A stretch of 39,918 bases of DNA from a virus (IMGVR_UViG_3300017991_000034:1-39918); one strand, 5' to 3'; shown: positions 7,501 to 39,918, counted from the stretch's first letter. The notes: generated by a model from the letters alone, not told the origin. Numbers and translations: made by a program.

Positions 7501-7620
7501 ATGGATAATAAGAAATTAACTTGGTTTAGTTTTTTATTAAAAATATTAAAGCTTTTAACACAATTATGGCTTTGGCCTTTTACTATTATTTATTACTTAA
7601 CAAGAAACTATTATGATTAA
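7501..7620 (+). CDS. Hydrophobic micro-protein (39 aa: MDNKKLTWFSFLLKILKLLTQLWLWPFTIIYYLTRNYYD)
   Basis: ATG preceded by GGGGGG-N4. It overlaps the HNH start by 8 nt (ATGATTAA). It is not in the ORF track, being below its size cutoff. Confidence 0.35.
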   Translation: MDNKKLTWFSFLLKILKLLTQLWLWPFTIIYYLTRNYYD

Positions 7621-8443: not shown

Positions 8444-8447
8444 TTTA

Positions 8448-9575: not shown

Positions 9576-9584
9576 GACGTACTC

Positions 9585-10016: not shown

Positions 10017-10027
10017 ACGTCTCCTTC

Positions 10028-15240: not shown

Positions 15241-16245
15241 CTAACCTATATCATAAGCAAAAGATTTGCCTGCACGCCATTTAATGGCATCACCAGATGT
15301 TCCACCTGGAGAACCAAGAGCAATAGCAGCATCAGAACTTGTGCCTAAGATCATTCCTATAAACCCTGTATTCAACGTTGAACTATCAGTATACAACCCA
15401 TCAGTTCCAACTGGAATCATTTGTGCATAATCTACTGGGGCTGCAGCTGGAAGAGGGAATGCAAATGCTGTATAGCCTGATGTATCTACTCCAATACTGA
15501 ATGTTGAAGCATCAATAGCTGTAACATCTACAAGTTGATCATTTAATTCTACCATTCCACAACTAACTGGAACTTTAATTCTTACTTTTTGACCTGTTGT
15601 TAAGCCATGGTCAACCAAAGTTGTTACTACACCAGGACTTGCTGCTGTAATATTAGCTATAACACGCTTTTTTGGATAGAACATGTCGTATACGGTTCTA
15701 TTTGGAGAAATATATCTATATGTTCCGTTAGCTCCTGCTATAACTCCAGGTGCTGTTGCTAATGTATTTGCAAGCCTGAAAGATGTATCCAATGTAACTG
15801 TATCAACTGAAAAATCTAAACCATTAAGACTTGTATGAGCAGTGTTCTGTATTCTAACAATGCTGCCAGCTACTAGTCTTCCTGTATCAGCTGTACTATA
15901 AACTGGTTGTGTAGCATTAGAACCAGCTGTGATAGCTACGGCTGCACCAGGAGTTTTATCTGTAGAATCTATTAAAGAGATGCCTCTATAGACAGCTCCA
16001 TTAAATCCTACTGCTGATGTTGATGTTGAAATAACTTGAGACGCTGCAGCATGAAAATCGTTTAATGCATCGTCTTGGTTCATACCTCTCTGCCAATACC
16101 ATCTAGTACTAGCCCATTGAGTAGAACCACCTATATTTGTAAGATTATATACTTCTACCCAATCTACATCAGATCTTAAAGGAATAATCTTATCAGTTCC
16201 ATCAGAACTAAAATATCCTTGTTGGTTAACTGTATTGTAAGCCAT
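15241..16245 (-). CDS. Capsid-associated protein (334 aa), possible decoration / head-fibre protein with two beta-barrel modules
   Basis: ORF track, with SD AAGGGA. It lies immediately downstream of the MCP. The modules are GRLVAGSIVRIQNTAHTSLNGLDFSVDTVTLDTSFRL and GVVTTLVDHGLTTGQKVRIKVPVSCGMVELNDQLVDVTAIDASTFSIGVDTSGYTAF. Confidence 0.45.
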   Translation of the reverse strand: MAYNTVNQQGYFSSDGTDKIIPLRSDVDWVEVYNLTNIGGSTQWASTRWYWQRGMNQDDALNDFHAAASQVISTSTSAVGFNGAVYRGISLIDSTDKTPGAAVAITAGSNATQPVYSTADTGRLVAGSIVRIQNTAHTSLNGLDFSVDTVTLDTSFRLANTLATAPGVIAGANGTYRYISPNRTVYDMFYPKKRVIANITAASPGVVTTLVDHGLTTGQKVRIKVPVSCGMVELNDQLVDVTAIDASTFSIGVDTSGYTAFAFPLPAAAPVDYAQMIPVGTDGLYTDSSTLNTGFIGMILGTSSDAAIALGSPGGTSGDAIKWRAGKSFAYDIG

Positions 16246-16258: not shown

Positions 16259-18454
16259 CTATGCTAATGTAGCTCTTAAATTGATAACCCATAAGTCATT
16301 GGTAATTCTAGGAACTTCCGCAAACTTATATCCGACTGAACAATTAAGAGCAAGAGGTCCATCATATATAGGTGGCCTATAGATAAAGCTTGCGCTATAT
16401 CCATCTTGTTCTATTGATGCATAAGCTTCCATACCAACACAGAAAATGTTATACACATCTTCTCCAAGGTTAGAAGCTGCTGCTGTATAAGATCCAATAG
16501 AGGATACCAAGAAACGTAAGTTTCCAATTGCACCCCATTCAGACCTTAAAGCATTCATAGGAGCTGGATATTGATTCTTTTGAATAAATCCAGCAACTGC
16601 TTCTAAGTTACCTGTCAGTTGAGTAGAACCGAGAGCAAAGTATGCATCACGTACTGGAGCTGTTCCAAACTTATCTTCACCTTCAATGTTATCCATAATT
16701 GTATAAGCATCGTTCGATAATAAAGTTCGTACAACTTCGTCAACATCGGCCCTCGTTATTTCTGTAGGGTTATCACCATTAACACCACTAGTACAGTTAA
16801 TAAACCCAGCTGTTGCTGCAAGCATATCACGTGTAAGTTGATCTTCTGTTTGCCTTTGTTACTCCTCAAAGAGGGGATATGTCATTTCTGCATATCTCAG
16901 GAACTTTCGTCTTCCTGCTCGGACTATCGCATCCCTTTCGGGTCTCTTCGTTTAGTCTCTCACGGTGGCCTACGCCTTCCGCCCTGTCACCATAGTTTTA
17001 ACCTTAGGCTTCCAAGTCCATTAGAAGAGATTTATACTCCGCCAAATTAACGGAGTGATACACCCAAACGCTTAGCTGCTTCATTTAAAACAGGATCTTG
17101 ATTCTGTAAAGTTCGATCTGTTACTTCTTTTGACTACTTTATATTTCAAAAGTAGCGGTGAGTCTTGTTATTCCTCACTCCCTATATTTCTATAGGGACC
17201 CGACTGTCGCTTCACCATTTGGTGTCCACTCGCCTCAGTCTGTCAGCGTGATATTTATTTCATTTTTAATATCTTCGCCCCTGTCACCCTCGACTTTACG
17301 TTAGGGCTTCCAAGTCAATCAGAGCGGATTTAAAGCAGGCAATTGCTTTACAAAATACAAGAAATTTCAAAGAACATTTAACGGCAGTACATATATACGC
17401 CTTTTTTATTTACCTGCTCGTTGATCTGTAAGTAGGTCGTTATTCAGATCAACTAATACGGCACCTACGCTATACCGTAGAAACTTATCTTGGCGTCTAT
17501 GTCAATCGCTGTGAGTGTTTGCGCTGGTGGAGTTACACCACTATTTCCTAGTGGAACCATTGCTGTATTAAGAGCGTTATACCTTCTCATACGAAGAGTT
17601 GTGCCGCCGTTCCTTGGCATAGTTTTCTTCATTGAGGGTATTTTGTGAATCATGTTGGGAGTTGGTACTGACAAAAGCTTTAAACTAAAACTTTGCTGAC
17701 TTTCTGTTACTTCAGGGTTACCTTCTACCCTTACTGACCATTATTAATGGCGGTTGGTCTTGTTATTCCCAACTCTTATAGTTTCCTATAAGATCGGACT
17801 ATCGCTTACGCTCTCGCGTTTTGAGGGCTTAGTCTCTGCGCCTACTTTATTACCATTGAACTCACGCATTTTTACATACATGTCTTCTCGGTAATTTAGC
17901 TCGTCTTTAGATAAACCTCTGTATCCTTGATTTGGTATTTCTTGTAAATGCCTACAAAAATCCAGTAAATGATAAGCTCTTGCTTTTTTTATCTTCAAAT
18001 AAGGAAGAACTTTTTTTAAAAATTCTGCAGTCTTAAATTTATTACGTAAATACCAATGATAAATAGGCTTACTATTAGGTCTATCTTTACGAGCGCCATT
18101 AAGCGTAATATTTCCATATTTTAAAATATCTTTTATAAAAGATACTGCTTCCAATTCTATCATAGCTATTTTAACACTAGGAATATAAGTAAAAGACCAT
18201 TGCTTAACATTTTTAGGAAATTTTAATGCTCGTACTGTAGTCCCATTACTAGTTTTTCTTTTGTGCTTTTCTATCATAAAACATCCATCAGCATCCATTA
18301 TTCCAGCAATATACGCCCAATGCGTTTGGCTCTGGTTATCATGCATTGATTCTAAATCAACGTTTAGACTTTCCAAGTAATCACCTCAAATTTTATACCG
18401 GCTCAACTATTCGTTAACCGGTGCAGGCAGTACCGTTGTTGTAGTTATAGGCAT
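16259..18454 (-). CDS. Major capsid protein (HK97-fold, N4-gp56-like), split gene with four exons: 18454..18417, 17738..17474, 17133..17050, 16852..16259. The spliced CDS is 981 nt (326 aa).
   Basis: SD AAGGAGG precedes the ATG at 18454. The exon peptides are MPITTTTVLPAP(V), SVRVEGNPEVTESQQSFSLKLLSVPTPNMIHKIPSMKKTMPRNGGTTLRMRRYNALNTAMVPLGNSGVTPPAQTLTAIDIDAKISFYG, SKEVTDRTLQNQDPVLNEAAKRLGVSLR and QTEDQLTRDMLAATAGF...RATLA. Joined, they read as one MCP. The ORFs at 17465..17674 and 16259..16825 are fragments of it. Confidence 0.8.
16853..17049 (-). mobile_element. Group I intron 3 in the MCP gene (ORF-less, ~197 nt)
   Basis: On the minus strand, P1 is CUCCGU|UAAUUUG-GCGGAG with a U.G wobble at the 5' splice site. 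P10 pairs UUUG with the exon start CAAA. The core contains ACUUGGAAGCCUAAGG. The P7 halves are GAGAGACUAAACG (plus 16951..16959) and GCGAUAGUCC (plus 16921..16930). The intron ends ...AAAGG|CAAACA. Confidence 0.75.
17134..17473 (-). mobile_element. Group I intron 2 in the MCP gene (ORF-less, ~340 nt)
   Basis: P1 is UACGGU|AUAGCGUAGGU-GCCGUA with a U.G wobble. The core contains ACUUGGAAGCCCUAACG. The P7 halves are ACAGACUGAGG (plus 17233..17244) and GCGACAGUCG (plus 17201..17210). The terminal hairpin CUACUUU...AAAGUAG ends in G just before exon 3. Confidence 0.75.
17739..18416 (-). mobile_element. Group I intron 1 in the MCP gene, carrying a LAGLIDADG homing endonuclease ORF (~678 nt)
   Basis: P1 is ACCGGU|UAACGAAUAGUUGA-GCCGGU with a U.G wobble. 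The core contains ACUUGGAAAGUCUAAACG. The P7 halves are CAGAGACUAAGCC (plus 17826..17838) and GCGAUAGUCC (plus 17796..17805). The 3' domain is homologous to intron 2. The 3' splice site among the adjacent Gs (17739/17738) was chosen to keep the reading frame. Confidence 0.7.
17786..18376 (-). CDS. Intron-encoded LAGLIDADG homing endonuclease (196 aa, TTG start)
   Basis: YIAGIMDADGCFMI is a LAGLIDADG motif. The TTG start is preceded by GAGGTGA-N4. The ORF begins inside the conserved ACUUGGAA core element, and its 3' end overlaps the P7 region. Confidence 0.8.
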   Translation of the reverse strand: MESLNVDLESMHDNQSQTHWAYIAGIMDADGCFMIEKHKRKTSNGTTVRALKFPKNVKQWSFTYIPSVKIAMIELEAVSFIKDILKYGNITLNGARKDRPNSKPIYHWYLRNKFKTAEFLKKVLPYLKIKKARAYHLLDFCRHLQEIPNQGYRGLSKDELNYREDMYVKMREFNGNKVGAETKPSKRESVSDSPIL

Positions 18455-20975: not shown

Positions 20976-23018
20976 CTACTCGACAGCCTGAATCTCACTT
21001 TGTTCAGGTGTATTTTGTTTAGTTACGTTTTCGTTGTCTATTTCGGTTTGCTTTGTTTGTACTTCTTTTGACAGTCTTATCATCTGTTCTAGCTGTGTTA
21101 TGTCAACCGTTTCTATCTCCTGCATAGCCTTAACAAGATTAAGAAGGCTTGCGGTTCTATCTTTAGCGGCTTCTGCCTTTCTTTCTACGGCTAGCGCTTG
21201 ATTTTCTTTTATTCGGCTAACTCTTTCAAGTCCAAGACCTTCATCTGCTTGAGCTCTTGCGTTAGCTAAATTAGTACGTGCTTGTTGTTCTTGCATTGCT
21301 GCTTGCATTTGCATCTCTTGTGCTTGTTGGGCTGCTTGTTGAGAGGCGGTAATAGAATCAGTTAGCTCTTTTTTATTTTGTAATGTTGCAGCTTCGATTA
21401 ATACGTCATCAGGGATAGGAACACCTATTTCTTTTAATTGCACTAATTGTGCAAATTGCATCTGTCTTTGAGTTGTAGTATTTAATCCATCCTCAACTGC
21501 TGCGTCATATTTTCCGAAAGCTTTATGATAAAATTGAGGAGAAGGCTCTTCTTCTATAATTCTTTTTACTTTTCCAGGGGTGAAATTGTTTTGAACTATA
21601 TTTAATATTATTTTACCAAGAAGCTTTTGAGATCTATCAAGGTTATCAAATAAACCTTCAAGAGTAACAAGTCCGGCACTCTGCCTTAACATGGACAAAA
21701 TGCCAGCCTTATCATCAATCGCAGACCCTAACAACTCTTCATTAACTCCAGATATTTCTTGTATTTCTCTACCTAAAAGTTCGGATAATTGCATCATTGA
21801 AGGCGGAACTTGAGGAGCCAAAATTTGCTCAACATCAGTCATTTGAGCGTCTTCTTTAAGAGCTAAGCCTCTGCCTTGACCATTAAGAAAGACATCTTTT
21901 GGATTAACCAACGCATTTTCTTTGTATTTCCATCCAGAGTTAATCTGACTCTCTAAAATATCTAGTTCAATTACTTTTCTTCTATTATATAGATATTGAG
22001 CATCTCTTAAGCCTCTAACCACGCCTTGTAATCGCTTGTCATAATTAGTCATCTGAGGATTAAAATATCCTAAAATAGGAACAAAGGGATACTGGTCAAC
22101 TCCTATTGGATTAGGCCCATCATACATTACTCTGTTTTGAACAACTATAGCAACTCTAGTGGTTGGGATTTCTTGATCTATAAGAGTAACCTGAGGATAC
22201 ATGTTTAAAAACTGGCGTAAGGCTTCTTGGTCTTCAGATTTCCATTCTAATGTTTCACCTGTCTGTGTATCCACTAACATTTTTTGAGTACGATAATCTT
22301 TATAATAGTATTCGTCATAAGTAAGTAATCCTTTAGCTCCTAAATTTTGAGCTTCAGGTAAAAATTCAAACTTACCATCTCCGTTATCTTTAGCCGAAAA
22401 GGATAAAATTTCTTTCTCTCTTTCAGGAAGTAACGACACGGCTTCCCTTTTAGTTAAAAAAGAACGCTTCCATATAGCATTACAATCAGATAGGTCCATT
22501 TTTTTAAAATAGGGATCTATTAAAAAGCTATTGTAACTGCAATTATCAACTTTAATGTCACCAGACACGGGGTCTGATCTATAATCAACCCACACTTGAA
22601 GTAGATTCATACCGGTTACAATAGCGCCGTGAAAGCCTTCTGAAATAGTATTTAAAACACCTTCTTGATTATTAAGCCAATACATTATTTTAGAAAATTG
22701 ATTGGCTGTATCTTCATCTGCATTTTCAACAGGGGAAACTACAGTAGATTTTCTATTTTTTCTCTGCTGACCGCTAATCATATTAACTATTCGACGAATT
22801 CTATTGAAATTAAATTGTCTTTTTTGAGCTAGTGGCAATCCTGGATATAGCTCATTCCATAAAGTTTGATCGCCAGATTCAAATCTAGTATCTATATCTG
22901 CTTCAGCCCAGAAAGACTGATTTATAGTAATACTATCAGCATAAAACTGGTTCATTCTTTCTATAATATATTTATTATCTTCAGTATAATACTGGGAATC
23001 CGCCTGAAAAAAAGCCAT
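20976..23018 (-). CDS. Portal protein (680 aa)
   Basis: Supported by its size and by its position between TerL and scaffold/MCP. The N-terminal region QSFWAEADIDTRFESGDQTLW and ...NRKSTVVSPVENADEDTANQFSKIMYWL resembles podovirus (P22-class) portals. The C-terminus has a long Gln/Ala-rich helix. Confidence 0.7.
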   Translation of the reverse strand: MAFFQADSQYYTEDNKYIIERMNQFYADSITINQSFWAEADIDTRFESGDQTLWNELYPGLPLAQKRQFNFNRIRRIVNMISGQQRKNRKSTVVSPVENADEDTANQFSKIMYWLNNQEGVLNTISEGFHGAIVTGMNLLQVWVDYRSDPVSGDIKVDNCSYNSFLIDPYFKKMDLSDCNAIWKRSFLTKREAVSLLPEREKEILSFSAKDNGDGKFEFLPEAQNLGAKGLLTYDEYYYKDYRTQKMLVDTQTGETLEWKSEDQEALRQFLNMYPQVTLIDQEIPTTRVAIVVQNRVMYDGPNPIGVDQYPFVPILGYFNPQMTNYDKRLQGVVRGLRDAQYLYNRRKVIELDILESQINSGWKYKENALVNPKDVFLNGQGRGLALKEDAQMTDVEQILAPQVPPSMMQLSELLGREIQEISGVNEELLGSAIDDKAGILSMLRQSAGLVTLEGLFDNLDRSQKLLGKIILNIVQNNFTPGKVKRIIEEEPSPQFYHKAFGKYDAAVEDGLNTTTQRQMQFAQLVQLKEIGVPIPDDVLIEAATLQNKKELTDSITASQQAAQQAQEMQMQAAMQEQQARTNLANARAQADEGLGLERVSRIKENQALAVERKAEAAKDRTASLLNLVKAMQEIETVDITQLEQMIRLSKEVQTKQTEIDNENVTKQNTPEQSEIQAVE

Positions 23019-23053: not shown

Positions 23054-23353
23054 TTAGACCATGCATTGTTTATCGACAGCTTCTTTAGGTGTATAAACCA
23101 TATCCATGTCTTTAATATTCATATTAACTATCTCTTCATTATCAAGTTCTTCATCGGTGTACTCTAAAAAATCCTCGTAGATTTCTTCATCGTTATTTTC
23201 TAAAGAATCATCGGACCAATAGTACTCAACTTTTATGTATTTTTTTTCTTCTGCTTTTTTAAAGCAAGTAAATTCACTTCTAAACTTAAAAAAAAGAAGA
23301 AGAAAAAACGTAATAACCATTAAAGCATAAAAAAATACAAATCTTTTTATCAT
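23054..23353 (-). CDS. Type II membrane protein (99 aa): N-terminal TM plus a highly acidic C-terminal domain
   Basis: ORF track, with SD TAGGA. The TM segment is FVFFYALMVITFFLLLFF. The tail is Asp/Glu-rich. Confidence 0.55.
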   Translation of the reverse strand: MIKRFVFFYALMVITFFLLLFFKFRSEFTCFKKAEEKKYIKVEYYWSDDSLENNDEEIYEDFLEYTDEELDNEEIVNMNIKDMDMVYTPKEAVDKQCMV

Positions 23354-23440
23354 ATAAATCCTATTAAATGATTAAATTCATAAACCAGTTTAAGTATCAT
23401 AAGCTACTATATCAAGAATAATATTATTTTATGCTTCATT

Positions 23441-23472
23441 GCGGGAGACGTCACAGATATTACGTCTCCCGC
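23441..23472. repeat. Perfect 11-bp inverted repeat GCGGGAGACGT-N10-ACGTCTCCCGC (GC-rich hairpin) after the peptidase gene
   Basis: Read directly. There is no U-tract on either strand. Confidence 0.85.
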
Positions 23473-23481
23473 TGCGATAAG

Positions 23482-24783
23482 TTACAAAGAAAGATAATCT
23501 TTTAAGAATTTAGTCCAGTAAGTATTTTTAGAAAAGTTAGTATTTAAGTACGAGTCATGAATATCCCTGGTTGGAAAATAAATAGATATGCCATTAGCAT
23601 TACATAATCCATGACACTTAACGTTCTTGATAATACTATCTTTTATAATAACAATACCTTTTCTTATTAGATACTCAAGAAGTACTATTCCGGTATTATT
23701 TTCTACACTATCTTCAATTATGGAGAAAGTTTCCAATAAGCTAGAATAGAAATGATACAAATCAATGTAATTCTTATTTATAAATGAAGTAGTTAGATTA
23801 TTGCTATTCCTTATAACCTTTAAAGCATTCATGTACATATTCTTGTCAGATCTTTCAAATAGAAGAATTAAAGCTTCGGCTATTTCATTTATATTAGCTT
23901 CTAATTTAACGTGGTTTTCAAGATCAATTGCCGAAAGCGTATATCCAATGTACGTATTTTGATAAGTATTTTTATATGAAGTAACTATATGTTTAGATAG
24001 ATCTTTTGGAGTAAAGGTTTGCGTTTTAAAGCTATCTAAAATCAAATCATACTTCCATCCTGTAGCAGGTTCTACTTCCTGAGAACCTATCATAATACTT
24101 ACAAAATCTTTTACCTGAGAGCCTATTTCTACCATAGACATAAAGCAGGCATCCATGCCTAAAATATCTAATTTCTTTCTATTTAATAAATTATTATAAA
24201 CTCTGTGCATGCAGCTATATAAATCATAATTCGTTAAATAGGTTTGGAAGACCTCATTAAATCCTATACCTTTGCTATCGACCAGCTTACGATTAAGTTC
24301 TATAAACCCAGTCTTTTTATTTAATATAAATATATCATGCGGATAACTAATACTAAGCTTGCCAAAAACATGTGGATCTTCTATACCAGATCCGTGATCC
24401 CATAAGATTAAAGCATTATGATGAGCAGGAAAGTTAGTTATAGCCCATTCTACAAATCTATAAAGATTTTCTTGCGTTCCGCTTGTACTTTGATAATTAT
24501 TAGACTGAACATCCAGTAAAACAGGAGCATCTTTATTAATTAAATACCTACAAGCTTCATTTTTTCCATGACTATCCACCTGAATCAAAATATTTACATT
24601 ATCATTAGACCCTACACTAATCATTTCATTAATATTTTTAACAGCAAAAGGTTCAAGGTCATTATTAGATACTAAATAAACTATGAAATTCCAATCCTTA
24701 ACTTGGGCCTTAGTGTCAGTAGCAAAAATTGAACAGTTAAATATAAATACTACAAATAATAAAATAGCTCTTAAAAAGACCAT
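23482..24783 (-). CDS. Secreted or signal-anchored clostripain-like (peptidase family C11) cysteine peptidase (433 aa from the ATG at 24783)
   Basis: SD AAGGAGG-N4-ATG at 24783. The hydrophobic N-terminus is FLRAILLFVVFIFNCSIFA. The His motif is NALILWDHGSG and the Cys motif is LDILGMDACFMSMVEIG, in the order and spacing typical of the C11 His/Cys dyad. Confidence 0.6.
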   Translation of the reverse strand: MVFLRAILLFVVFIFNCSIFATDTKAQVKDWNFIVYLVSNNDLEPFAVKNINEMISVGSNDNVNILIQVDSHGKNEACRYLINKDAPVLLDVQSNNYQSTSGTQENLYRFVEWAITNFPAHHNALILWDHGSGIEDPHVFGKLSISYPHDIFILNKKTGFIELNRKLVDSKGIGFNEVFQTYLTNYDLYSCMHRVYNNLLNRKKLDILGMDACFMSMVEIGSQVKDFVSIMIGSQEVEPATGWKYDLILDSFKTQTFTPKDLSKHIVTSYKNTYQNTYIGYTLSAIDLENHVKLEANINEIAEALILLFERSDKNMYMNALKVIRNSNNLTTSFINKNYIDLYHFYSSLLETFSIIEDSVENNTGIVLLEYLIRKGIVIIKDSIIKNVKCHGLCNANGISIYFPTRDIHDSYLNTNFSKNTYWTKFLKDYLSL

Positions 24784-24806
24784 AAAGCCTCCTTTACCAC
24801 CAAATA

Positions 24807-24989
24807 TCAATCACTAATCTTATCCAAAGGGACACTAATATCTACATCCACATCTACAATATCACTATCAATATCAACCTCATAAGTAACAGTATTCTCC
24901 TTTTTATCATGCTTAAAAGATGTATCCATAGTACACCCGCAATAAAAACTTATATAAAAAAGACAAAAAAATAGAAACCATTTATTCAT
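24807..24989 (-). CDS. Small secreted or lipoprotein-like protein (60 aa) with an acidic mature part
   Basis: Strong SD GGGAGG. The N-terminus is MNKWFLFFCLFYISFYCGC (signal-like, Cys after Gly; the lipobox is not canonical). Confidence 0.5.
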   Translation of the reverse strand: MNKWFLFFCLFYISFYCGCTMDTSFKHDKKENTVTYEVDIDSDIVDVDVDISVPLDKISD

Positions 24990-25069
24990 AAGACCTCCCT
25001 GTCTTAAATGGGTTAAAAATACCTACACATTAATATATAAAATTATTAACAAACAACTCAATATTAAGT

Positions 25070-25097
25070 TTGATATTTGAATTCCATATGATATAAT
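25070..25097 (+). promoter_or_regulatory. Sigma70-like extended -10 promoter of the plus-strand secreted-protein unit
   Basis: TTGATA-N16-TATAAT, with TG one nt upstream of the -10 box (TGaTATAAT). Confidence 0.5.
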
Positions 25098-25134
25098 TTC
25101 TTCTTGTACTTTTTATTTAACTACTAAAATATTC

Positions 25135-25151
25135 AAGGAGAAACAATGTAA
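25135..25151 (+). promoter_or_regulatory. Start-stop mini-ORF (AAGGAG-N5-ATG-TAA) in the leader
   Basis: Read directly: aaggagaaacaATGTAA, 75 nt upstream of the 25226 start. Confidence 0.4.
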
Positions 25152-25225
25152 CTATATATTTTTCTATAAGAAATACAAAGTGTCGTAATATTTATAAATA
25201 ATTTCATATAAGAGAGAAGAGATTT

Positions 25226-25852
25226 ATGTTTAAGAAAATATATAAATTTATCTTATTACTACTATTAAGTAGCAGCACTTTAAGTTCCATGGAAATAAAA
25301 GAGCCGTTCTTGGTAAAACCAGAAAGACTTAAAGATGTAAGGATATTTCACAACGATCGCGGTTTCTTTGCCGAACATAATAATATTGTATCCCCAATAC
25401 AAAATGCTTTTGTAGATCAAGAGTTAAGAAACCTAACGGATGAAAGATTAGGTTATTTACTGGGCATAATACAAAATGTTCAAATAGAAGGTAAAGTATA
25501 TACTTTCTACAAGATTATGAATGTGCCAGAAGAAACCGCTGTAAGAGAGTTAGATAACCTAGTAAGGGTACATGTAGATAATTCCCTCTTTAATTTTTCT
25601 AATTACATTAAAGTATCAGAATTATCTAACGGTGAATTATGCTTGCATTTCAAGGTTAGACTTCCAGGTGGTGGACCATTACTTGGAAATATAGCTTATT
25701 GGGTAGTAAGCGGAACAGGACAAACACTCTTAACAGTCTTAGATGCACTCAGCGGCGGCGCAACTGTCCCTGTAACAGTTGGAGCTAGAACTATAGTACA
25801 AGCTAGCGCATTAGTAATAGGTACAGTTGCAGCAGGAACACCAACCCCATAA
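25226..25852 (+). CDS. Secreted protein, paralog A (208 aa), with a Gly/Ala/Thr/Val-rich hydrophobic C-terminus
   Basis: The signal peptide is MFKKIYKFILLLLLSSSTLSS. Blocks shared with paralog B are EIKEPF, RLPGGGP and AYWV. Confidence 0.65.
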   Translation: MFKKIYKFILLLLLSSSTLSSMEIKEPFLVKPERLKDVRIFHNDRGFFAEHNNIVSPIQNAFVDQELRNLTDERLGYLLGIIQNVQIEGKVYTFYKIMNVPEETAVRELDNLVRVHVDNSLFNFSNYIKVSELSNGELCLHFKVRLPGGGPLLGNIAYWVVSGTGQTLLTVLDALSGGATVPVTVGARTIVQASALVIGTVAAGTPTP

Positions 25853-25866
25853 AGAAAGAATAAAAA

Positions 25867-26694
25867 ATGTTTAAAAAAACAATATTAAGTTTAATAACAA
25901 TATCTGCATTTGCTTTAAATACAGCAAAACCTGTTGAAATAAAAAAGCCTTTTATATTCAGCAAAGAATCTGCTGGAAACATAAAATTACATCATGAAAG
26001 AAATAAATTTTATGTTGAGAAGGACGATAACTTAATCGAAGTAAGCGGTGCTTTTATAAGTTGCCCAATAAGAAATATAGATACTAATACTTTACTTCAT
26101 ATGCTAGGAATTAAAAAGCTAGTAAGCGTAAAAGGGATGTCTCTAGTATTTGAAAGAATAGAAGACATTAGAAAAGTAGATACGAATCTTTTAAAAAATA
26201 AGCCTATAATCGGATTCACAGAAGAAGAAACTGAAGAAATAACAAAACAGTTAGAAAATACTACTAGCTACATAGAGATAATTCAGTTAGATGAAAATGA
26301 ATATGCTTTAAACCTTAAACACAGACTATGCGGTGGTGGACCAGTAAGTGGATTCGTTGCTTACTGGGTAACAAAAGTATTTTGTTACGGAACTGCAGCA
26401 GCTGCTTTGACTACAGCCACAGTAGGTACATGCGGAGCTGCCGGGGCTGTGGCAGGCGGAGCAGCCGCAGCAGCAGGCGCAGGAGCAGCAGCCGCAATTG
26501 GATCTGGAACTGCAGCTACAGTTGCAGGAATAGGTGGAGCTATGGTGGCAGGTGGCTCTGCTGCAGCTGCAGGTGGAGCAGCAGTAGCAACCGGAGCAGT
26601 TCTTGCTAGTGGAGTTTCAACTGCAGTAGCAGCTGTTGAAACTGGATCTACAGCTGTTGGTTTATTTTTTACAGCAATTCCTTTTTTACCATAG
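25867..26694 (+). CDS. Secreted protein, paralog B (275 aa), with a ~110-aa Gly/Ala-rich (glycine-zipper-like) C-terminus
   Basis: The signal peptide is MFKKTILSLITISAFALNTA. The shared blocks are EIKKPF, RLCGGGP and AYWV. The tail GTAAAALTTATVGTCGAAGAVAGGAAAAAGAGAAAAIGSG... forms a local GC-rich island at 26390..26660. Confidence 0.65.
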   Translation: MFKKTILSLITISAFALNTAKPVEIKKPFIFSKESAGNIKLHHERNKFYVEKDDNLIEVSGAFISCPIRNIDTNTLLHMLGIKKLVSVKGMSLVFERIEDIRKVDTNLLKNKPIIGFTEEETEEITKQLENTTSYIEIIQLDENEYALNLKHRLCGGGPVSGFVAYWVTKVFCYGTAAAALTTATVGTCGAAGAVAGGAAAAAGAGAAAAIGSGTAATVAGIGGAMVAGGSAAAAGGAAVATGAVLASGVSTAVAAVETGSTAVGLFFTAIPFLP

Positions 26695-26700
26695 TAAGAA

Positions 26701-26817
26701 ATGATAGAAATAATAAATGAACTTCTAAATTACTTTTTTGGTGGCTATTTTGGATACACATTTATGACGTATCTTATAGACTGGTATGCCGATAGAAAAA
26801 AGGGAAACAATGATTAA
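26701..26817 (+). CDS. Micro-protein (38 aa: MIEIINELLNYFFGGYFGYTFMTYLIDWYADRKKGNND), aromatic and hydrophobic
   Basis: The ATG lies 6 nt after the paralog B stop. It is not in the ORF track. Confidence 0.35.
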   Translation: MIEIINELLNYFFGGYFGYTFMTYLIDWYADRKKGNND

Positions 26818-26926
26818 TTTGAATTGCCCTGGAATGGTTATGTCTGCAGCAAGAATGATATGTTTTATTCTTTCTCTAGTTGTAGCTAAAAAAGTAATTA
26901 AGTTCTATAAAAACAAAATAAAATAA
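26810..26926 (+). CDS. Micro-protein (38 aa: MINLNCPGMVMSAARMICFILSLVVAKKVIKFYKNKIK), one TM plus a basic tail
   Basis: SD AAGGGAAA precedes the ATG. It overlaps the previous micro-ORF (ATGATTAA). It is followed by the terminator hairpin. Confidence 0.4.
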   Translation: MINLNCPGMVMSAARMICFILSLVVAKKVIKFYKNKIK

Positions 26927-26939
26927 ACACACAGCAAAA

Positions 26940-26961
26940 GGGGGGACTATGTAGTCCCTCC
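26940..26961. terminator. Hairpin between the convergent plus-strand unit and TerL (bidirectional terminator candidate)
   Basis: GGGGGGACUA-UG-UAGUCCCUCC gives a stem of about 9 bp. On the minus strand it is followed by CUUUUG. Confidence 0.5.
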
Positions 26962-27030: not shown

Positions 27031-30000
27031 CTACCTGAAAAAAGAAGGAATATCTTCATCTCCGTATACAGCAGATCTATATCTCTTCTCAAGTTCTTCG
27101 GCCGATAGACCATCTCTTGTCTTTGGTAATGAAATACATAAGTATCTGAGAGCGTCACAATTAGAAACAAGATACCCGTTAATATAATAACAGTTGTCTC
27201 TTTCAACTGTTAAATCGTATACCTCTTTTGGTGTATCTACTTGATATAATTCCACACTTCTTACCACATGTTTTCTTGATAGAATATTTATTACATTCAA
27301 ACTCTTTATTGCAAATAATACAAAGCCTTTTTTCAAAATCGAGACGAGCCAGGACCCTGGACTTAGTCTTACATTTATTGCTGCAGTATTTTTGCCAAGC
27401 CTGTTTCCCTTGGTACTCCTTTTTGCAAACAACACAAGTTTTCTTGTATTTAATATTCCTACAAGACGGGAGAGAAGTTTGAGCATGCTCCTTATGCCAG
27501 CGCCTTCCTTCTTCGCTACAATGCCATTCTTTAGCTTTCGCGTTTTGTGAACGCAACAAGTTTTTACATTCGTCTGATTGACTCCAAGAACCTGGCCTGG
27601 TTGCATGCCTATGCCCGTGCTCAAATCTCGTAAGCAGCTCAAGGTTTGATATCTCATTATTTTTGGCATTTCCGTCCCTGTGATGAACGACGTAGCCTTT
27701 CGGTATAGGGCCTTTATTTTTCTCCCAAATGTGTCTTTGAAGTGTAGTATGCACGCTTTTACCCGCATAAGAAGTTCCATTACTCTGGAACATTCTTCCT
27801 GAGCCCCCCATGTAGTATTTTGAGGCATTCCATCTATAAATGTACCCATTAAACATGACTTGTTTCTCGTCTTCAGAGATAAGATAGTCTTCTTGAATCC
27901 TTTTGAATCTTGTTCCGCGATATAATATCCAAATATCTTTTTCCATAAATAGTTCCTAAATTTACTAAATGGTTCCAATATGTCACCATATCGCAAACTA
28001 TCAGCATAAGTCAATCCTTCTTGAGTAAATATTTGATGCTCTGGAGTACATTTTATTTTTTTGTTTATTAAACACAACTTTCTTGCATATCTTTTATGTT
28101 TTTTTAAAACTTTTCTTATACCTAAAGGTGTTATAACTTCATCACCTTCCCGTATATCTTTAATAGCTATATTTCCGGATGGAGTTAAAACTTGCATCTC
28201 ACCAGTAAAACAAAAATGGCTGTAAATATCATGAAGCGGCCTAGGCTTATAAACCTTCTTCTTAGAGTCGTATTCTTGCCTATAGTTATTTATGGCTTTA
28301 ATTAACGACTGACATTTAGTTTCATCAATCCATATCTTAGAGAAAGCAGAGCGAACGGATTCTATGCCATCTTCAATAGAAATACTAGGAGCAACCGTAA
28401 ATTTTATTCCTAAATTCTTAGCTTTTTCTAGTCTGGTCATACCTGAACCAAATTCTTTTACTTTAATATCATGAGGAGCTATATGCTTACCATAGATATA
28501 GTCTTTTTGAGCTAAGATTTTAACGTAGTGCTCTAGACCTTCTTTATTTTTTTCATAGCAGTCTATAATTCTTACTGTTTGCCCTATTGTCTGAAAGAAA
28601 ATGATACATGTTGAATCTCTTACTCCTAGATCCCAAGCAGTATGAACTTTAAATCCTGGCTCATAAGGAACCATCCCCAGTTGATTGTTAAGTTTCATCT
28701 TGTCTAAATACTTAGCGTAATAAGCACCCTCAACACCTAAGCTAAACGAACAGTAGTATTCCTGTTGAATTAGATCTTCAGACATCAATCCTTCTTCTCG
28801 TTCCTTTTCTATTTCTCTATAGGGAATATGTCTTGTATCTTCAAGGGTAAGATGATAGGCGAACCAATCTGGGCTATTCTTGGCCACTTGATACAGTTCC
28901 CAGAAGTTGTTCTTGCCACGAGGCGTATTGTGACTAATAAAGCCGTTACTGAAGAAGGAGTGCGTGGATGGTATGACGAAATCGTACACTTCGGATTCTG
29001 ATGCTTCAATAGATTGAACAGGAGAATAAAATAAATTCTCTTTAATTAAGGATTTTAAATACACACTATCATATTTTATTATCAATTTTTTTATTAATCT
29101 ACGAGATATGCGTGACGCATTAGCTATTTCTTTTTTTAAATACTTAAAGTCTAATTTTGAAGGATTTACTGGGTAAACGTTTCCAGATTCTTTTTTAACA
29201 TTGTTAGGAATAAACTTACAGTTTACCTGTTTTCTTTTTAATCTAAATCCTATTTGCGTATAAAATATGTGTGCAAAATATCCAGTTATTTCTAGGTTAT
29301 AAATTGTACTATGCGCCTTCACTTTTTTAGTAGGCTCTTTCTCTTCCTTTCTGATAGAAGATGCTATTCCGAAGTTTAATAAAACTATTTGAAGGTCTCG
29401 AATAAATTTCTTACACGCAGATGTAATCTTTATATATCCACACTTAGAAGGATTTGAATTACTTGTGCCGTCGCCATCAAAAAGACCTTGTAAGAACGCT
29501 TTCAGCTGGGCTCTAGTACATTCAAATAATTTATCTGGAAATGTTTTATTTTTAGCACCATGCCTAAATCCAAGCCATTCCAAAAGTAAACAAAATGTTC
29601 GCGAATTAAAGTTATGGTGTATACCATCTTTAAAAGTAGTAAATCTATTAGAGCGTAAGAATTTTATTATTTCAGGATCTTTTTTATTGGTAATAGTTAC
29701 CTTATTTTTATCGTAGCTTCCATCGGCATGAATAAGACCCAAAAGATAAAAGAAGTCTTTGTCACACGCTCTATCTTCTATTTCCCACCCAGAATGCGGA
29801 TGCTCCTTATGCTTAAACTTAGAAAAATACAATCCTTTTCCAAATACATTCTGTCCATATTGCACTGGAAATAAATCACCTACTTTAATATCAGAGGACT
29901 TCATCCACTCACAACCATTCCATAATGGATGTACAGGAGTACATTCTATTTCGTAACCAGAAGAAAGTTTTATTTTTAAAGTATTCTGATTACCACCAAA

Positions 30001-30633
30001 ATAAAAATCCGTAGCTTTGTTAAAACCATTCAAACCAAAAATAGGTTCATTTAGAGAAGAATATTCTTCTCTTGAATTAGATACCTTACTAATCCTTTTT
30101 AACCCATTTTCTGTTATCACTAATGTATTAGGAGAAACACACGAAATAAAAAGCGCCCATCCATCATTTGCTGCAAGAATAGGACGTATAAATTGATAAG
30201 CGCGTGGATCCTGTATTGCATACTCAGAAAATACGCACCCATAAGGGTTTGAGCCTACAAGGCTATCAATATTATCTGAACCAATAAGCTGTAAGATAGA
30301 CCCGTTAATAAAAGAAATCTTCATTTCCTGCGAATTCTTAGACATTATAAGCTCGTCTGGAATGAAGTCTGTAAACTTTTGACCCGAATTCGTAATTGAG
30401 TCCCAGATTACCTTCTTAGCTTGAGAGTATGTTGGGAATATATAATAGACAATGCAAATTTTCTTAATGCATTGTCTTATAGCTAAATTCCATGCAACAA
30501 TATCTTTACCTGCCCTTCTTGGCATAACTACAAGAATCTTTTTATATTCTTTGTTCTCTAGGGCATCAACTATTGGAATTTGGTATTTTCTTGGAGAAAA
30601 TTTATTTAATACTCTTCTTGTCTGATAGTTCAT
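27031..30633 (-). CDS. terL: Terminase large subunit precursor (1200 aa) containing two inteins; the mature extein product is about 444 aa
   Basis: Extein motifs: Walker A VVMPRRAGKD, Walker B GCVFSEYA, coupling motif ALFIS|TPRGKN, nuclease motifs HTAWDLGVRDST, IAPHD and YSHF|CDALRY. Confidence 0.9.
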   Translation of the reverse strand: MNYQTRRVLNKFSPRKYQIPIVDALENKEYKKILVVMPRRAGKDIVAWNLAIRQCIKKICIVYYIFPTYSQAKKVIWDSITNSGQKFTDFIPDELIMSKNSQEMKISFINGSILQLIGSDNIDSLVGSNPYGCVFSEYAIQDPRAYQFIRPILAANDGWALFISCVSPNTLVITENGLKRISKVSNSREEYSSLNEPIFGLNGFNKATDFYFGGNQNTLKIKLSSGYEIECTPVHPLWNGCEWMKSSDIKVGDLFPVQYGQNVFGKGLYFSKFKHKEHPHSGWEIEDRACDKDFFYLLGLIHADGSYDKNKVTITNKKDPEIIKFLRSNRFTTFKDGIHHNFNSRTFCLLLEWLGFRHGAKNKTFPDKLFECTRAQLKAFLQGLFDGDGTSNSNPSKCGYIKITSACKKFIRDLQIVLLNFGIASSIRKEEKEPTKKVKAHSTIYNLEITGYFAHIFYTQIGFRLKRKQVNCKFIPNNVKKESGNVYPVNPSKLDFKYLKKEIANASRISRRLIKKLIIKYDSVYLKSLIKENLFYSPVQSIEASESEVYDFVIPSTHSFFSNGFISHNTPRGKNNFWELYQVAKNSPDWFAYHLTLEDTRHIPYREIEKEREEGLMSEDLIQQEYYCSFSLGVEGAYYAKYLDKMKLNNQLGMVPYEPGFKVHTAWDLGVRDSTCIIFFQTIGQTVRIIDCYEKNKEGLEHYVKILAQKDYIYGKHIAPHDIKVKEFGSGMTRLEKAKNLGIKFTVAPSISIEDGIESVRSAFSKIWIDETKCQSLIKAINNYRQEYDSKKKVYKPRPLHDIYSHFCFTGEMQVLTPSGNIAIKDIREGDEVITPLGIRKVLKKHKRYARKLCLINKKIKCTPEHQIFTQEGLTYADSLRYGDILEPFSKFRNYLWKKIFGYYIAEQDSKGFKKTILSLKTRNKSCLMGTFIDGMPQNTTWGAQEECSRVMELLMRVKACILHFKDTFGRKIKALYRKATSFITGTEMPKIMRYQTLSCLRDLSTGIGMQPGQVLGVNQTNVKTCCVHKTRKLKNGIVAKKEGAGIRSMLKLLSRLVGILNTRKLVLFAKRSTKGNRLGKNTAAINVRLSPGSWLVSILKKGFVLFAIKSLNVINILSRKHVVRSVELYQVDTPKEVYDLTVERDNCYYINGYLVSNCDALRYLCISLPKTRDGLSAEELEKRYRSAVYGDEDIPSFFR
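27160..28212 (-). mobile_element. Intein 2 in TerL (351 aa, residues C808-N1158): a mini-intein scaffold whose linker is overprinted by an out-of-frame HNH gene
   Basis: It starts CFTGEMQVLTP. Block B is KCTPEHQIF. The C-terminal blocks are EVYDLTVERDNCYYINGYLVSN followed by +1 Cys. The penultimate residue is Ser, not His. It is inserted in the nuclease motif SHF/CDALRY. Confidence 0.75.
27203..27946 (-). CDS. HNH homing endonuclease (247 aa) encoded in the -1 (+2) frame inside intein 2
   Basis: It has its own AGGA-N7-ATG. The HNH motif is GYVVHHRDGNAKNNEISNLELLTRFEHGHRH. Two C-terminal zinc ribbons (CVVCKKEY...YCSNKC; CIICNKEF...TCGKKC) resemble those of the 7613..8443 HNH. Confidence 0.8.
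   Translation of the reverse strand: MEKDIWILYRGTRFKRIQEDYLISEDEKQVMFNGYIYRWNASKYYMGGSGRMFQSNGTSYAGKSVHTTLQRHIWEKNKGPIPKGYVVHHRDGNAKNNEISNLELLTRFEHGHRHATRPGSWSQSDECKNLLRSQNAKAKEWHCSEEGRRWHKEHAQTSLPSCRNIKYKKTCVVCKKEYQGKQAWQKYCSNKCKTKSRVLARLDFEKRLCIICNKEFECNKYSIKKTCGKKCGIISSRYTKRGIRFNS
28927..30141 (-). mobile_element. Intein 1 in TerL (405 aa, residues C165-N569) with a LAGLIDADG endonuclease domain
   Basis: It starts CVSPNTLV. Block B is CTPVHPLW. The LAGLIDADG motifs are LLGLIHADGS and LQGLFDGDGT. It ends FISHN followed by +1 Thr. It is inserted inside the ATPase coupling motif (IS/TP). Codons were checked at both junctions. Confidence 0.85.
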
Positions 30634-33987: not shown

Positions 33988-34015
33988 TTGACAATATTTA
34001 TAACTTTAATATACT
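33988..34015 (+). promoter_or_regulatory. Rightward early promoter
   Basis: TTGACA-N16-TATACT. Its -10 box overlaps the -10 box of the leftward promoter. Confidence 0.5.
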
Positions 34016-34064: not shown

Positions 34065-34301
34065 ATGTTTAGGATAGCAAGAAAAGGTACGAATCCTGAT
34101 TTGATTAAATACTTAAGTAAAATATCTAAATATGATCCACCTCATAAGTATTCAAAGTTGGTTAGTATTTACTTAGAAAGTCATTACATGAATATTTGTA
34201 AAAATACGCCATCCAAAATAGAATCAGAAATAAAAAAGTTTTTTCCGGAAATGATTATTTTTTTTAAGGAGATTCATGAAAGATTCGATAAAAGAAACTA
34301 A
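34065..34301 (+). CDS. Hypothetical early protein (78 aa)
   Basis: ORF track. It is the first gene of the rightward operon and overlaps the ERF start. Confidence 0.45.
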   Translation: MFRIARKGTNPDLIKYLSKISKYDPPHKYSKLVSIYLESHYMNICKNTPSKIESEIKKFFPEMIIFFKEIHERFDKRN

Positions 34302-35067
34302 CGCTAAACTAAGCGAACGAGAATCGTTTTTAGACCAACTTAATTCACTTAGGGCCCTAGAGTCTTATGTAAGTGAAAGAGTTGTAGCTACCCTGAAGTC
34401 TATCCCTGAGGATAAGTATGAATCTGATGATACTAAAGAGATTAATATAGCTCTTTCAAAAGCGCAGGGAGAATTTCCTTCTATTGGTTACAATAAGGAG
34501 AATCCATACTTTAAAAATAAATATACTGATCTTGATAGCATAGTAAAAGCTATTAGGCCTGCTCTTAATAAGAACGGCTTATCTATAACTCATCAAACTA
34601 TTATTACTAAAGAAGGTATGACCGTACTTAGGTCTAGAGTTAGGCATAATTCTGGTCAATGGATAGAAACTAGAGCAAGAATTATTCCTACAAAATCAGA
34701 TCCTCAAAGCTATGCAAGCGCTCTTACATACATGAAAAGATATTCCCTTATGGCATTAATTAATGTTACAACAAGTGATGATATATCAGATGATGATGCT
34801 GAAAGAAATATGTATACTCTAAGAGATACAAAAGCTAAAGGCGTAGCTTTAAACACTAAATATAACCCTAAAGATCAAGCTTCTGATGTTATAACAAAAG
34901 AACAACTAGAAGAACTTGAGTATGAGCTTGGCGAATATGATGATATAGCTGAAATGGTATTAGATGGATTAAAGCTTCAATCTCTTGCAGATATGCCTAA
35001 AAATAAATACTTATCAGCAGTTAAAAGAATTAGAGAAATAAAAAATGCTAGAGATGGTGTAAATTAG
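34276..35067 (+). CDS. erf: ERF-family single-strand annealing recombinase (263 aa)
   Basis: SD AAGGAG. ALSKAQGEFPSIGYNKENPYFKNKYTDLDSIVKAIRPALNKNGLSITHQ...YASALTYMKRYSLMALINV matches the ERF family pattern. Confidence 0.8.
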   Translation: MKDSIKETNAKLSERESFLDQLNSLRALESYVSERVVATLKSIPEDKYESDDTKEINIALSKAQGEFPSIGYNKENPYFKNKYTDLDSIVKAIRPALNKNGLSITHQTIITKEGMTVLRSRVRHNSGQWIETRARIIPTKSDPQSYASALTYMKRYSLMALINVTTSDDISDDDAERNMYTLRDTKAKGVALNTKYNPKDQASDVITKEQLEELEYELGEYDDIAEMVLDGLKLQSLADMPKNKYLSAVKRIREIKNARDGVN

Positions 35068-35080
35068 TTATTGGTGTTGG

Positions 35081-35139
35081 TTTTGCTGCAGGTTTTTTTT
35101 CTATTCCTTTTCCTATCTGTTTTTAGTCCTGCAGCAAAA
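35081..35139. repeat. 12-bp inverted repeat TTTTGCTGCAGG / CCTGCAGCAAAA with a 35-nt pyrimidine-rich spacer
   Basis: Read directly, between the ERF gene and the 98-aa gene. Confidence 0.8.
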
Positions 35140-35154
35140 TAAAATGAGGGAATA

Positions 35155-35451
35155 ATGTCCAATTATTACTCAAAGGTTAAACATCTTAAATATGCATCTC
35201 TTGAACAGGTAACACGATATAAAAAAATGAAAAAAAATTCTCTTGGATACATTCTAAATAAGATATTTAAAGCTACTATAATCATCATAGTAGTTATTTT
35301 ATTAATTCAGAAATTAAATGAATTGTTAAATAAAGATCAGATAATTTTAGTTAAAGAATCAGAAATAGTCACAGTCCCAAATAAAAAAAAGGGACCAGCT
35401 GCTTTTAAAACTGGCCCCCATCTTCAAGGAGAGAAGGATGAGAGACTATAA
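35155..35451 (+). CDS. Single-pass membrane protein (98 aa)
   Basis: SD GAGGGA. The TM segment is FKATIIIIVVILLIQKL. Its 3' end overlaps the convergent fibre gene by 6 nt. Confidence 0.5.
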   Translation: MSNYYSKVKHLKYASLEQVTRYKKMKKNSLGYILNKIFKATIIIIVVILLIQKLNELLNKDQIILVKESEIVTVPNKKKGPAAFKTGPHLQGEKDERL

Positions 35452-39845: not shown

Positions 39846-39918
39846 AATTATGCCTCCAGATCACCAAAAAAGCGCCATGTGTCTGTCAAAATTTTAATCA
39901 TGCAGCCACCAGAATAAA
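39796..39918. repeat. Terminal direct repeat, copy 2 (identical to 1..123)
   Basis: Exact match to the window start. Confidence 0.95.

Follow-up and report, generated by a model that had tools for sequence, protein, structure and literature searches.

A possible toxin/immunity-like membrane module carried as accessory cargo in a phage group linked to Dependentiae

In the 39,918-nt viral contig IMGVR_UViG_3300017991_000034 (positions 1–39918, hereafter the window), a short plus-strand cassette lies antisense to the genes of a podovirus-like phage, between those for the large terminase and the portal. It encodes two paralogous proteins, P1 and P2, followed by two overlapping 38-aa open reading frames (ORFs), pep1 and pep2, and raises the question of where such genes come from and what they could do for a phage. 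A first-pass annotation of the window had described a membrane-targeting module of two secreted proteins with glycine-zipper-like tails and two tiny membrane peptides, all four ORFs of which are present. We find that P1 and P2 belong to an unannotated family of at least 476 clusters, with an N-domain unmatched in the PDB and BFVD and with tiny, mostly unannotated membrane partners, and that the cassette forms part of a larger mobile island, as one of its two arms; a toxin/immunity-like function is the reading that we tentatively prefer.

P1 and P2 belong to an unannotated protein family

P1 and P2 align over 174 aa with 29% identity (BLASTP E 4e-23) and have the blocks EIK.PF, RL.GGGP and AYWV in common, which bears out their earlier description as paralogs. 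Both N-termini read MFKK followed by a hydrophobic stretch that resembles a signal peptide, in keeping with the signal peptides assigned at first pass, and P2 additionally has a cleavage-type site, AFA-L. A word-indexed homology search with P1 returned P1 as its sole match, so that an exhaustive profile search was needed to find relatives. When we built a HMMER profile from the P1 and P2 N-domains and ran it against 1.84 billion cluster representatives, the search yielded 476 matches at E ≤ 1e-3, of which 132 reached E ≤ 1e-10; most of the proteins are 200–320 aa long. The first-pass annotation had recognised no family for these proteins, which holds for curated families and folds, but they are not orphans. 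Pfam, NCBIfam and PADLOC gave no match for P1, P2 or the peptides, and the best PHROGs match for these proteins had an E-value of 0.019, to families of no stated function. For a wider set comprising P1, P2, three homologs, their partners and the peptides, PADLOC returned no defence or superinfection-exclusion match, and 27 family members had no Pfam match at E ≤ 0.1.

Family members are built in one order: the signal peptide leads into the N-domain, a GGGP hinge comes next, and behind it an A/G/T/V tail, almost free of charged residues and variable in length, runs to a conserved C-terminal helix. In the family alignment, the N-domain is marked by the motifs FVP.rLG, l.H..GF and vqNcFvDkEiRN..eqL..fLG, followed by an optional insert of ~45 aa and then by YI.v.q.sDGEY.l.a..Rl.GGGP..g..aYW.tK..cYG, after which an A/G/T/V-rich stretch of ~30–150 aa runs to the conserved end AAVE.aS...G.FF...P(f/t)(l)P. 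AlphaFold2 modelled the N-domains of P1 and P2 confidently, with pLDDT ≥90 over most of residues 21–150, and predicted helices at residues 159–188 and 250–270 of P2. Foldseek with the P2 model found no neighbour in the PDB (best E 0.17, TM-score <0.15) or BFVD (best E 0.33), and across Pfam, NCBIfam, PHROGs, PADLOC and these two structure collections there was no clear homology to a known structural or housekeeping family.

The tails are unusual in composition. Residues 156–275 of P2 consist to 81% of A, G, T, V and S, and the only charged residues in this 120-aa stretch are K170 and E258, both at positions conserved in the family; in the P1 tail the same five residues make up 66%. The label 'glycine zipper' given to these tails earlier fits in a relaxed sense, with 49 small-xxx-small pairs in P2, but not in the strict sense, with just two GxxxG. 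The glycine-zipper families of Pfam (Gly-zipper_Omp, Gly-zipper_YMGG, Gly-zipper_OmpA and Rick_17kDa_Anti) were not matched either, as P1 and P2 have no Pfam match at E ≤ 1 and the 27 members none at the cutoff given above. On the DNA level, the Gly and Ala codons of the P2 tail create the sharp GC-rich island that had drawn attention at first pass: GC content at 26390–26650 is 58%, compared with 34.9% window-wide, and the eight GC-richest 250-nt intervals of the entire window all lie within 26331–26660. A lipoprotein signal in the family was considered and rejected, since the signal of most members, P1 and P2 included, does not end at a Cys.

Small membrane partner genes follow the family genes

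To describe what follows the family genes, we scored small ORFs with a predicted transmembrane (TM) segment that start −40 to +120 nt from the stop codon, using non-redundant family genes with enough downstream sequence and, as controls, other genes of ≥150 aa in the same loci. Such an ORF stands directly downstream of 49/56 family genes and of 77/384 controls (Fisher 4e-23, a value that ignores the shared ancestry of the loci). The linkage to tiny membrane proteins that the first-pass annotation had proposed is therefore conserved across the family.

The partners differ in type between loci. A 65–72-aa two-TM protein with the signature M.Y...K...GWR.P is common to the cellular locus L014 and the phage locus L016, and a ~180-aa multi-TM protein occurs in cellular loci L015, L154 and L161 as well as in phages L040 and L065. 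The latter (5124–5672 on the minus strand of L040; 10826–11371 in L015) has 2–4 TM segments and a cytoplasmic domain motif, GIWI.xYNFIPW.NI; it matches NCBIfam NF041635, 'STM3941 family protein', weakly and below the cutoff (E 9e-9), and a literature search for the function of the STM3941 family found nothing relevant. Overlapping micro-peptide pairs, each peptide 29–48 aa long, form a further type, found in Babeliales chromosomes (L004, 35+34 aa; L006, 44+29 aa; L015, 48+29 aa) and in phages (L041, 34+30 aa; L168, 32+33 aa), and a single peptide of the type MWYWYE follows the family genes in the phage contig L171.

The micro-peptides of the window resemble the members of such pairs in motif and position. 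The motif ..(T/S)(D/E/Y)-L-I-(L/I)-(D/E).. is common to pep1 and the A-type peptides of other family loci, and pep1-like peptides follow the family genes in L041, L004, L006, L015, L171 and L168. With a clear predicted TM segment and a tail charge of +6, pep2 has the TM-plus-basic-tail design of the B-type peptides, which take the equal position in L004, L006, L015, L041 and L168. The longest version of the pep2 ORF starts at 26786 and encodes 46 aa, which is the JGI gene call, and an AAGGGA is better spaced for the start at 26810 than for that at 26786. The two peptides had been described as hydrophobic with basic tails: the ORFs and their overlap stand, and the basic tail is right for pep2 but not for pep1, whose net charge is −2. 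The recurrence of peptide pairs at family loci, as judged from sequence, is the best evidence that both 38-aa ORFs are genes. The linkage of tail and partner persists even in reduced form, as phage L025 encodes at 2766–3342 a 137-aa family version with signal peptide and hydrophobic tail and no N-domain, followed by a 53-aa TM ORF, suggesting that tail plus partner make up the functional core.

The family gene is accessory cargo exchanged between phage and host

The exact repeat of bases 1–123 at positions 39796–39918 indicates an assembly overlap, which makes the window a complete genome of 39,795 bp, either circular or terminally redundant. An identical contig is present in the ENA, JGI and Logan assemblies. 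The phage has a P22-type portal, which is ~25% identical to its best GenBank phage match, and also encodes ERF and RusA recombination genes and tail genes; the cassette DNA has no match among GenBank phages. We sought relatives through p165, a conserved 165-aa neighbour of the scaffold-like gene with the motif R.SCPTP.Y.Q, for which IMG/VR holds 524 relatives. By their sequences, these define a large group of phages of ~30–42 kb in which the stretch from terminase to capsid contains three hypervariable slots for cargo.

The family gene is accessory cargo in these variable slots and is exchanged between phage and host. It is present in 3/80 of the loci closest by p165 (IMG/VR loci L036–L115), and across the phage group it occupies the terminase–portal, portal–p165 and p242–capsid slots, often antisense to the structural genes. 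In the closest relative without it (L036), the corresponding slot is filled by other signal-peptide genes and a gene for a clostripain-like (C11) peptidase. Phage contexts of the family comprise 20 IMG/VR contigs and the loci L008, L011, L168 and L171. Of 49 family loci from an unbiased scan of metagenomes, 15 carried markers of the phage group, and the family loci of ≥9 kb divided into 7 phage and 10 non-phage (about 40% vs 60%).

The cellular side of this distribution is narrow. The only names attached to family homologs are Candidatus Babeliales or Candidatus Dependentiae, and a scan of species-representative genomes, run with a narrower family alignment, returned two Candidatus Babeliales metagenome-assembled genomes (MAGs) and two MAGs labelled 'uncultured Pseudomonadota'. 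Each of the window's two paralogs shares 37–38% identity with a cellular Babeliales protein and is thus closer to it than to the other paralog (29%). Non-phage family loci include one on a contig of 1.47 Mb (L014) and one on a contig of 205 kb (L015), and in L004 the family gene stands among ankyrin- and pentapeptide-repeat genes. In the cellular locus L010 (1–13800), a stretch of 3 kb holds two copies of the family gene with equal upstream sequence and a small membrane ORF apiece; polymorphic-toxin genes (Tox-REase-3/Imm7/Imm8) and the pair AbiEi/AbiEii adjoin them.

The cassette is one arm of a divergent island

Contrary to the first-pass view of a self-contained cassette, the four genes travel with a divergent operon that encodes an exported C11 cysteine peptidase, a putative lipoprotein and the N-terminal-TM protein p99 (Table 1). 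The whole block recurs in L171, a 42.8-kb phage contig, where at 7845–11587 a TM protein, a C11 peptidase and a lipoprotein face paralog a, paralog b and the MWYWYE peptide. There the block follows the tail-fibre genes, whereas in the window it lies between terminase and portal, and this different genomic placement shows that the cassette belongs, as one arm, to a mobile island spanning 23054–26961. Similarity extends over both arms: the C11 peptidases are 60.6% identical, p102 of L171 corresponds to p99 (30% identity, E 5e-10), lipo67, which has a canonical LLSGC lipobox, corresponds to the 60-aa lipoprotein (38%, E 3e-9), and the family proteins F1 and F2 of L171 correspond to P1 (36.8%, E 5e-48) and P2 (30.6%). 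Since F1/F2 are orthologous to P1/P2, the pair is old and has been kept as a pair; this, and the fact that P1 and P2 each have nearer kin elsewhere in the family than in one another, led us to reject a recent tandem duplication.

The peptidase gene matches Pfam PF03415 with E 8.6e-41 and 141 bits (cutoff 25.8), and its translation has the His/Cys dyad motifs WDHGSG and GMDACFM, from which activity is predicted. Its closest named homologs, at 43–47% identity, are all from Dependentiae/TM6/Babeliales. In two cellular genomes the homolog is found in the synteny enolase–YajC–ComEC–C11–UDG–NusA–IF2–LpxK (6001–7329 in L172 and 8001–9413 in L173), and the phage gene looks like a copy of an apparent core envelope protease of the host. 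As the names attached to the family and the C11 homologs are all of Dependentiae type, the phage most likely infects Dependentiae, and the island would be host-derived. This phylum, also called TM6, is widespread and has hardly been cultured; its members parasitise protists from inside their cells. Literature searches found no paper on Dependentiae or Babeliales phages. The two host-specific gene families link a large group of ~35–40-kb phage genomes to this phylum.

Table 1. Features of the island and the genes on either side of it, in window coordinates.
Feature	Position	Strand	Description
P22-type portal gene	20976–23018	−	
p99, 99-aa protein	23054–23353	−	N-terminal TM, acidic C-terminal part; end of the divergent arm, next to the portal gene
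C11 cysteine peptidase (clostripain-like, exported), predicted	23482–24810	−	signal peptide; 442 aa from TTG start, 433 aa by gene callers
60-aa putative lipoprotein	24807–24989	−	…FYCGC…, acidic mature part; first gene of the divergent arm; stop overlaps C11 start by 4 nt
Sigma-70-like promoter candidate	25070–25097	+	TTGATA, 16-nt spacer, extended −10 TG, TATAAT; consensus match
P1 (family paralog a), 208 aa	25226–25852	+	signal peptide, N-domain, RLPGGGP...AYWV, 61-aa A/G/T/V tail, end PTP
P2 (family paralog b), 275 aa	25867–26694	+	signal peptide (AFA-L), N-domain, RLCGGGP...AYWVTK..CYG, 120-aa A/G/T/V/S tail
Coding part of P2 tail (GC island)	26331–26694	+	conserved protein end AAVE.GS..G.FF..IPFLP
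pep1, 38 aa	26701–26817	+	aromatic-rich, A-type, ..Y-L-I-D.. motif; begins 7 nt past the P2 stop
pep2, 38 aa	26810–26926	+	predicted single TM, strongly basic tail; 8-nt overlap with pep1 (ATGATTAA)
GC-rich hairpin	26940–26961		between the convergent cassette (+) and terminase gene (−)
Large terminase gene	27031–30633	−	1200-aa ORF with two inteins

The intergenic region between the two arms measures 236 nt and contains the promoter candidate, 129 nt upstream of P1. An extended −10 promoter had been annotated here, and a promoter-like sequence is indeed present, scoring 11/12 plus the TG. Two sites of ≥11/12 exist in the window (25070 and 33988, both on the plus strand), each of which precedes one of the two plus-strand gene blocks; since shuffled sequences give 2.9±1.6 such sites, the position is suggestive and the count unexceptional. 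The second site (33988–34015, +, TTGACA-16-TATACT) lies just upstream of the plus-strand block 34065–35451, which includes ERF. At the other end, the hairpin in which the cassette was said to end is real, and a 61-nt stretch with this and a second hairpin folds at about −20 kcal/mol, but a T-run adjoins it on the minus strand only. The hairpin therefore reads first as the terminator of the terminase gene, and possibly as a bidirectional one.

Possible functions of the module

The reading that we favour, with a probability of roughly 40%, is that the phage carries, as cargo, a mobile membrane module of a toxin/immunity-like kind. The invariant Sec-type export signal, the uncharged small-residue tail and the cognate tiny membrane protein together favour a toxin/antidote-like arrangement, and the conserved linkage of large proteins to tiny membrane ORFs points to the toxin with immunity peptides that was among the roles suggested at first pass. 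Under this reading, a ~3.9-kb cargo island of Dependentiae origin (23054–26961) would have settled between terminase and portal, a variable slot of this podovirus-like phage. P1 and P2 would be exported by Sec, as their N-terminal signals suggest, and the globular N-domain would remain periplasmic, while the Gly/Ala/Thr/Val tail, from the GGGP hinge to the C-terminal helix with its conserved Glu, would enter the inner membrane from the periplasmic side. The inserted tail could then perturb or permeabilise the membrane, an analogy drawn from glycine-zipper and ionophore toxins. Going by conserved gene order only, pep1 and pep2 might bind the tail in the membrane and neutralise it in the producer, acting as immunity or antidote. 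Expressed from its own promoter, the module would be a moron that protects or arms the infected cell by competition or exclusion and would not be a core morphogenesis gene. If this reading is true, the family is a new type of Sec-dependent membrane toxin that phages and hosts exchange.

Several observations weigh against it. Pfam, NCBIfam, PHROGs, PADLOC and Foldseek show no sequence or fold similarity of the P1/P2 family to known toxin or immunity families, and no delivery system (type I, V, VI or VII secretion system, CdiB, or ABC/C39 exporter) is found in the window or the neighbourhoods examined; with Sec export alone, the protein would stay in the producer's own envelope. Searches of the 39,795-bp genome detected neither an integrase domain nor a tRNA or Rfam family, and as any lysogeny would be hypothetical, a role in competition becomes less obvious for the phage. 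AlphaFold2 left the P1 tail and the rest of the P2 tail unmodelled, and strict GxxxG motifs are few. On the partner side, pep1 is of moderate hydrophobicity, under the TM threshold used, as well as net acidic, and the linkage statistic carries the shared ancestry noted above. The cassette sequence is identical in all three recovered copies (ENA, JGI and Logan assemblies), which leaves the translation of pep1 and pep2 without direct coding support.

Known systems resemble parts of this arrangement. In contact-dependent inhibition (CDI), ionophore toxins combine a variable N-domain with a helical membrane domain, and a 72–100-aa, two-TM CdiI, often unannotated, is encoded directly downstream (PMC11630599). 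The likeness to CdiA-CT/CdiI lies in the two-part effector, the hydrophobic C-terminal small-residue zipper domain, the small membrane protein directly downstream and the polymorphic sequences, and pore-forming colicins offer a parallel in topology, being toxic only on reaching the membrane from the periplasmic side (PMC11630599). P1 and P2, unlike CdiA-CT, belong to a family of free-standing 200–330-aa Sec-signal proteins and are not the tip of a CdiA filament, have no similarity to it in sequence or predicted fold, have a low-complexity A/G/T/V tail of variable length in place of a five-helix bundle, and have partners that are in some cases pairs of 29–48-aa peptides; the host range, too, is different from that of CDI systems, being Dependentiae and their phages. 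CdzC and CdzD of Caulobacter, which act with the multi-TM membrane immunity protein CdzI, are likewise two tandem paralogous small-residue-zipper proteins followed by a small membrane protein, and are membrane-active, aggregation-prone hydrophobic proteins (PMC5380434), properties that P1 and P2 may have by analogy. The Cdz proteins, however, are ~85 aa long, are without a globular domain and have type I export encoded alongside, whereas P1 and P2 have a Sec signal and a ~130-aa N-domain and no type I secretion genes. The type VII-secreted LXG toxins TelE and EsxX also place a C-terminal zipper domain, membrane-depolarising in their case, behind a targeting domain, with a membrane immunity protein nearby, but they are Firmicutes substrates with LXG domains, neither of which applies here, and there is no homology. 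As cargo, the island recalls the eukaryotic association module of the Wolbachia phage WO, which is host-derived, self-promoted, inserted in a variable slot and found in an obligate intracellular bacterial host; its gene content is entirely different, and we detected no eukaryote-like domains here.

A second explanation, which we regard as unlikely, is a non-canonical lysis module. Holin/antiholin and spanin cassettes such as T4 T/RI and lambda S/Rz/Rz1 place small membrane proteins with charged tails beside an envelope-active protein, and T4 T is mirrored here by a periplasmic globular domain on a membrane segment, with a 60-aa lipoprotein and an N-terminal-TM protein near. The family protein would then be holin-like or otherwise membrane-disrupting, with a periplasmic sensor domain, as the mirror image of holin T, the micro-peptides would be antiholins or co-holins (pep2 is an adjacent small TM protein with a charged C-terminus), and in the divergent arm the C11 protease would break the envelope with p99 as the i-spanin and the lipoprotein as the o-spanin analogue. 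These two flank the C11 gene, although neither has a PHROG or NCBIfam spanin match or an established coiled coil or proline-rich feature. In other phages the family gene shares its cassette with genes for three kinds of protein, one with signal peptide plus coiled coil, one a lipoprotein or TM protein and one a small TM protein; in some it stands between spanin-like and holin-like genes, and in L008, L011, L017 and L022 it is co-oriented with the late genes. Neither Pfam nor PHROGs finds a peptidoglycan hydrolase (muralytic) domain anywhere in the complete genome, even though Dependentiae have the mur pathway (PMC6561590).

The missing hydrolase is less telling than it seems. In some relatives, small TM genes come behind a gene with a weak likeness to Peptidase_M15_4, either in the p242–capsid interval or downstream of the portal gene, and the family gene occurs in 0/~10 loci with such an endolysin and small TM genes, compared with 10–11/42; this exclusivity is insignificant because most relatives have neither in that interval. 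We therefore rejected the absence of an endolysin as a decisive argument for a lysis cassette. Other observations weigh against lysis: the family gene is non-core, with just the three occurrences among the 80 closest relatives, is abundant in non-phage chromosomal contexts, and in the window is antisense with its own promoter candidate. Nor is there a muralytic enzyme in or beside the cassette, the adjacent enzyme being the C11 protease; the partners have no PHROG holin or spanin match, the N-domain has no enzyme-like fold match, and the tandem paralog pair has been kept across phages.

A broader version of this idea, which we consider improbable, makes the whole island a new envelope-breaching system in which the C11 protease, the Gly/Ala-tail protein pair and micro-peptide regulators replace endolysin, holin and spanin or aid virions and bacteria in crossing the membranes of the eukaryotic host, the two-gene modules having been domesticated repeatedly in Dependentiae chromosomes. 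One could speculate further that the C11 protease frees the tail at R-L-x-GGGP and so turns a soluble precursor into a membrane-active peptide. We set this cleavage at the conserved Arg before GGGP aside as speculation only: the Arg is present in about 23/27 aligned members, but both L171 paralogs, encoded beside a C11 gene, lack it, which weakens the release idea. Should a lysis or host-membrane role be true, the island would show how phages escape from bacteria that live inside eukaryotic cells.

Equally, P1 and P2 might be non-toxic envelope proteins, with a periplasmic domain, tethered to the inner membrane by the tail, that remodels or guards the envelope, perhaps excluding superinfecting phages through a block on DNA entry or masking a receptor, and with small partners that assemble or stabilise it; we think this doubtful. 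Phage exclusion genes are exemplified by P22 sieA and T4 imm and sp, and the candidate promoter, opposite orientation and variable slots of the cassette are typical of exclusion genes and morons. The N-domain is well folded in the model, conserved and without an enzyme-like match, and a protein of this kind would not be out of place in Dependentiae, which export a large share of their proteome (44% of coding sequences have signal peptides; PMC6561590). Beyond the absence of PADLOC and PHROG matches, what speaks against exclusion is that the N-domain is dispensable in L025 while tail and partner are constant, and that near-universal coupling to a cognate small membrane protein is not known from exclusion proteins.

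It is very unlikely that the module is a eukaryote-directed effector, whose tail, once released from the bacterium, would enter protist vacuolar or organelle membranes as a channel or lytic agent with C11 as co-effector and the micro-peptides protecting the producer, much as in the phage WO module. In its favour, the island's two large gene families both encode exported proteins specific to Dependentiae, the cellular copies have ankyrin-repeat and other effector-like genes around them, and the hosts, as obligate intracellular parasites, secrete effectors that include proteases (PMC6561590). Against it, there is no evident route across the outer membrane, no eukaryote-like domain is present and the cellular C11 gene sits in conserved housekeeping synteny outside effector islands.

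Other features of the phage genome

Mobile and repeated elements mark other genes of this phage. In the large terminase, the first intein includes a LAGLIDADG endonuclease (aa ~215–569), while the second is a Hint domain that begins at aa ~808; within the region of this second intein, another reading frame encodes a 247-aa HNH endonuclease (27203–27946, −; Pfam HNH_3, E 1.3e-16). The gene for the major capsid protein is fragmented across 16259–18376 (−), with an N-part at 17465–17674, a C-part at 16259–16825 and a LAGLIDADG endonuclease ORF at 17786–18376, and the capsid ORFs lack ~40 middle residues and the first ~20 residues. The capsid gene of the relative L036 is intact and encodes 315 aa, a comparison that suggests at least two introns here, and those of L047, L048 and L081 are also in several pieces; in the capsid region, the group I and group II models of Rfam all stayed below threshold. 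An Arc-like repressor ORF (83 aa, PHROG E 3.6e-5) followed by a free-standing HNH endonuclease (276 aa) forms a plus-strand insert at 7232–8443 within the minus-strand tail genes. Structural proteins encoded at 15241–16245 and 10564–12816 match the Pfam E1_FCCH domain, and the putative tail-fibre genes (595 aa and 863 aa) contain diverged tandem-like repeats of ~123 nt and ~21 nt, at 38250–39810 and 36950–37530 (−).

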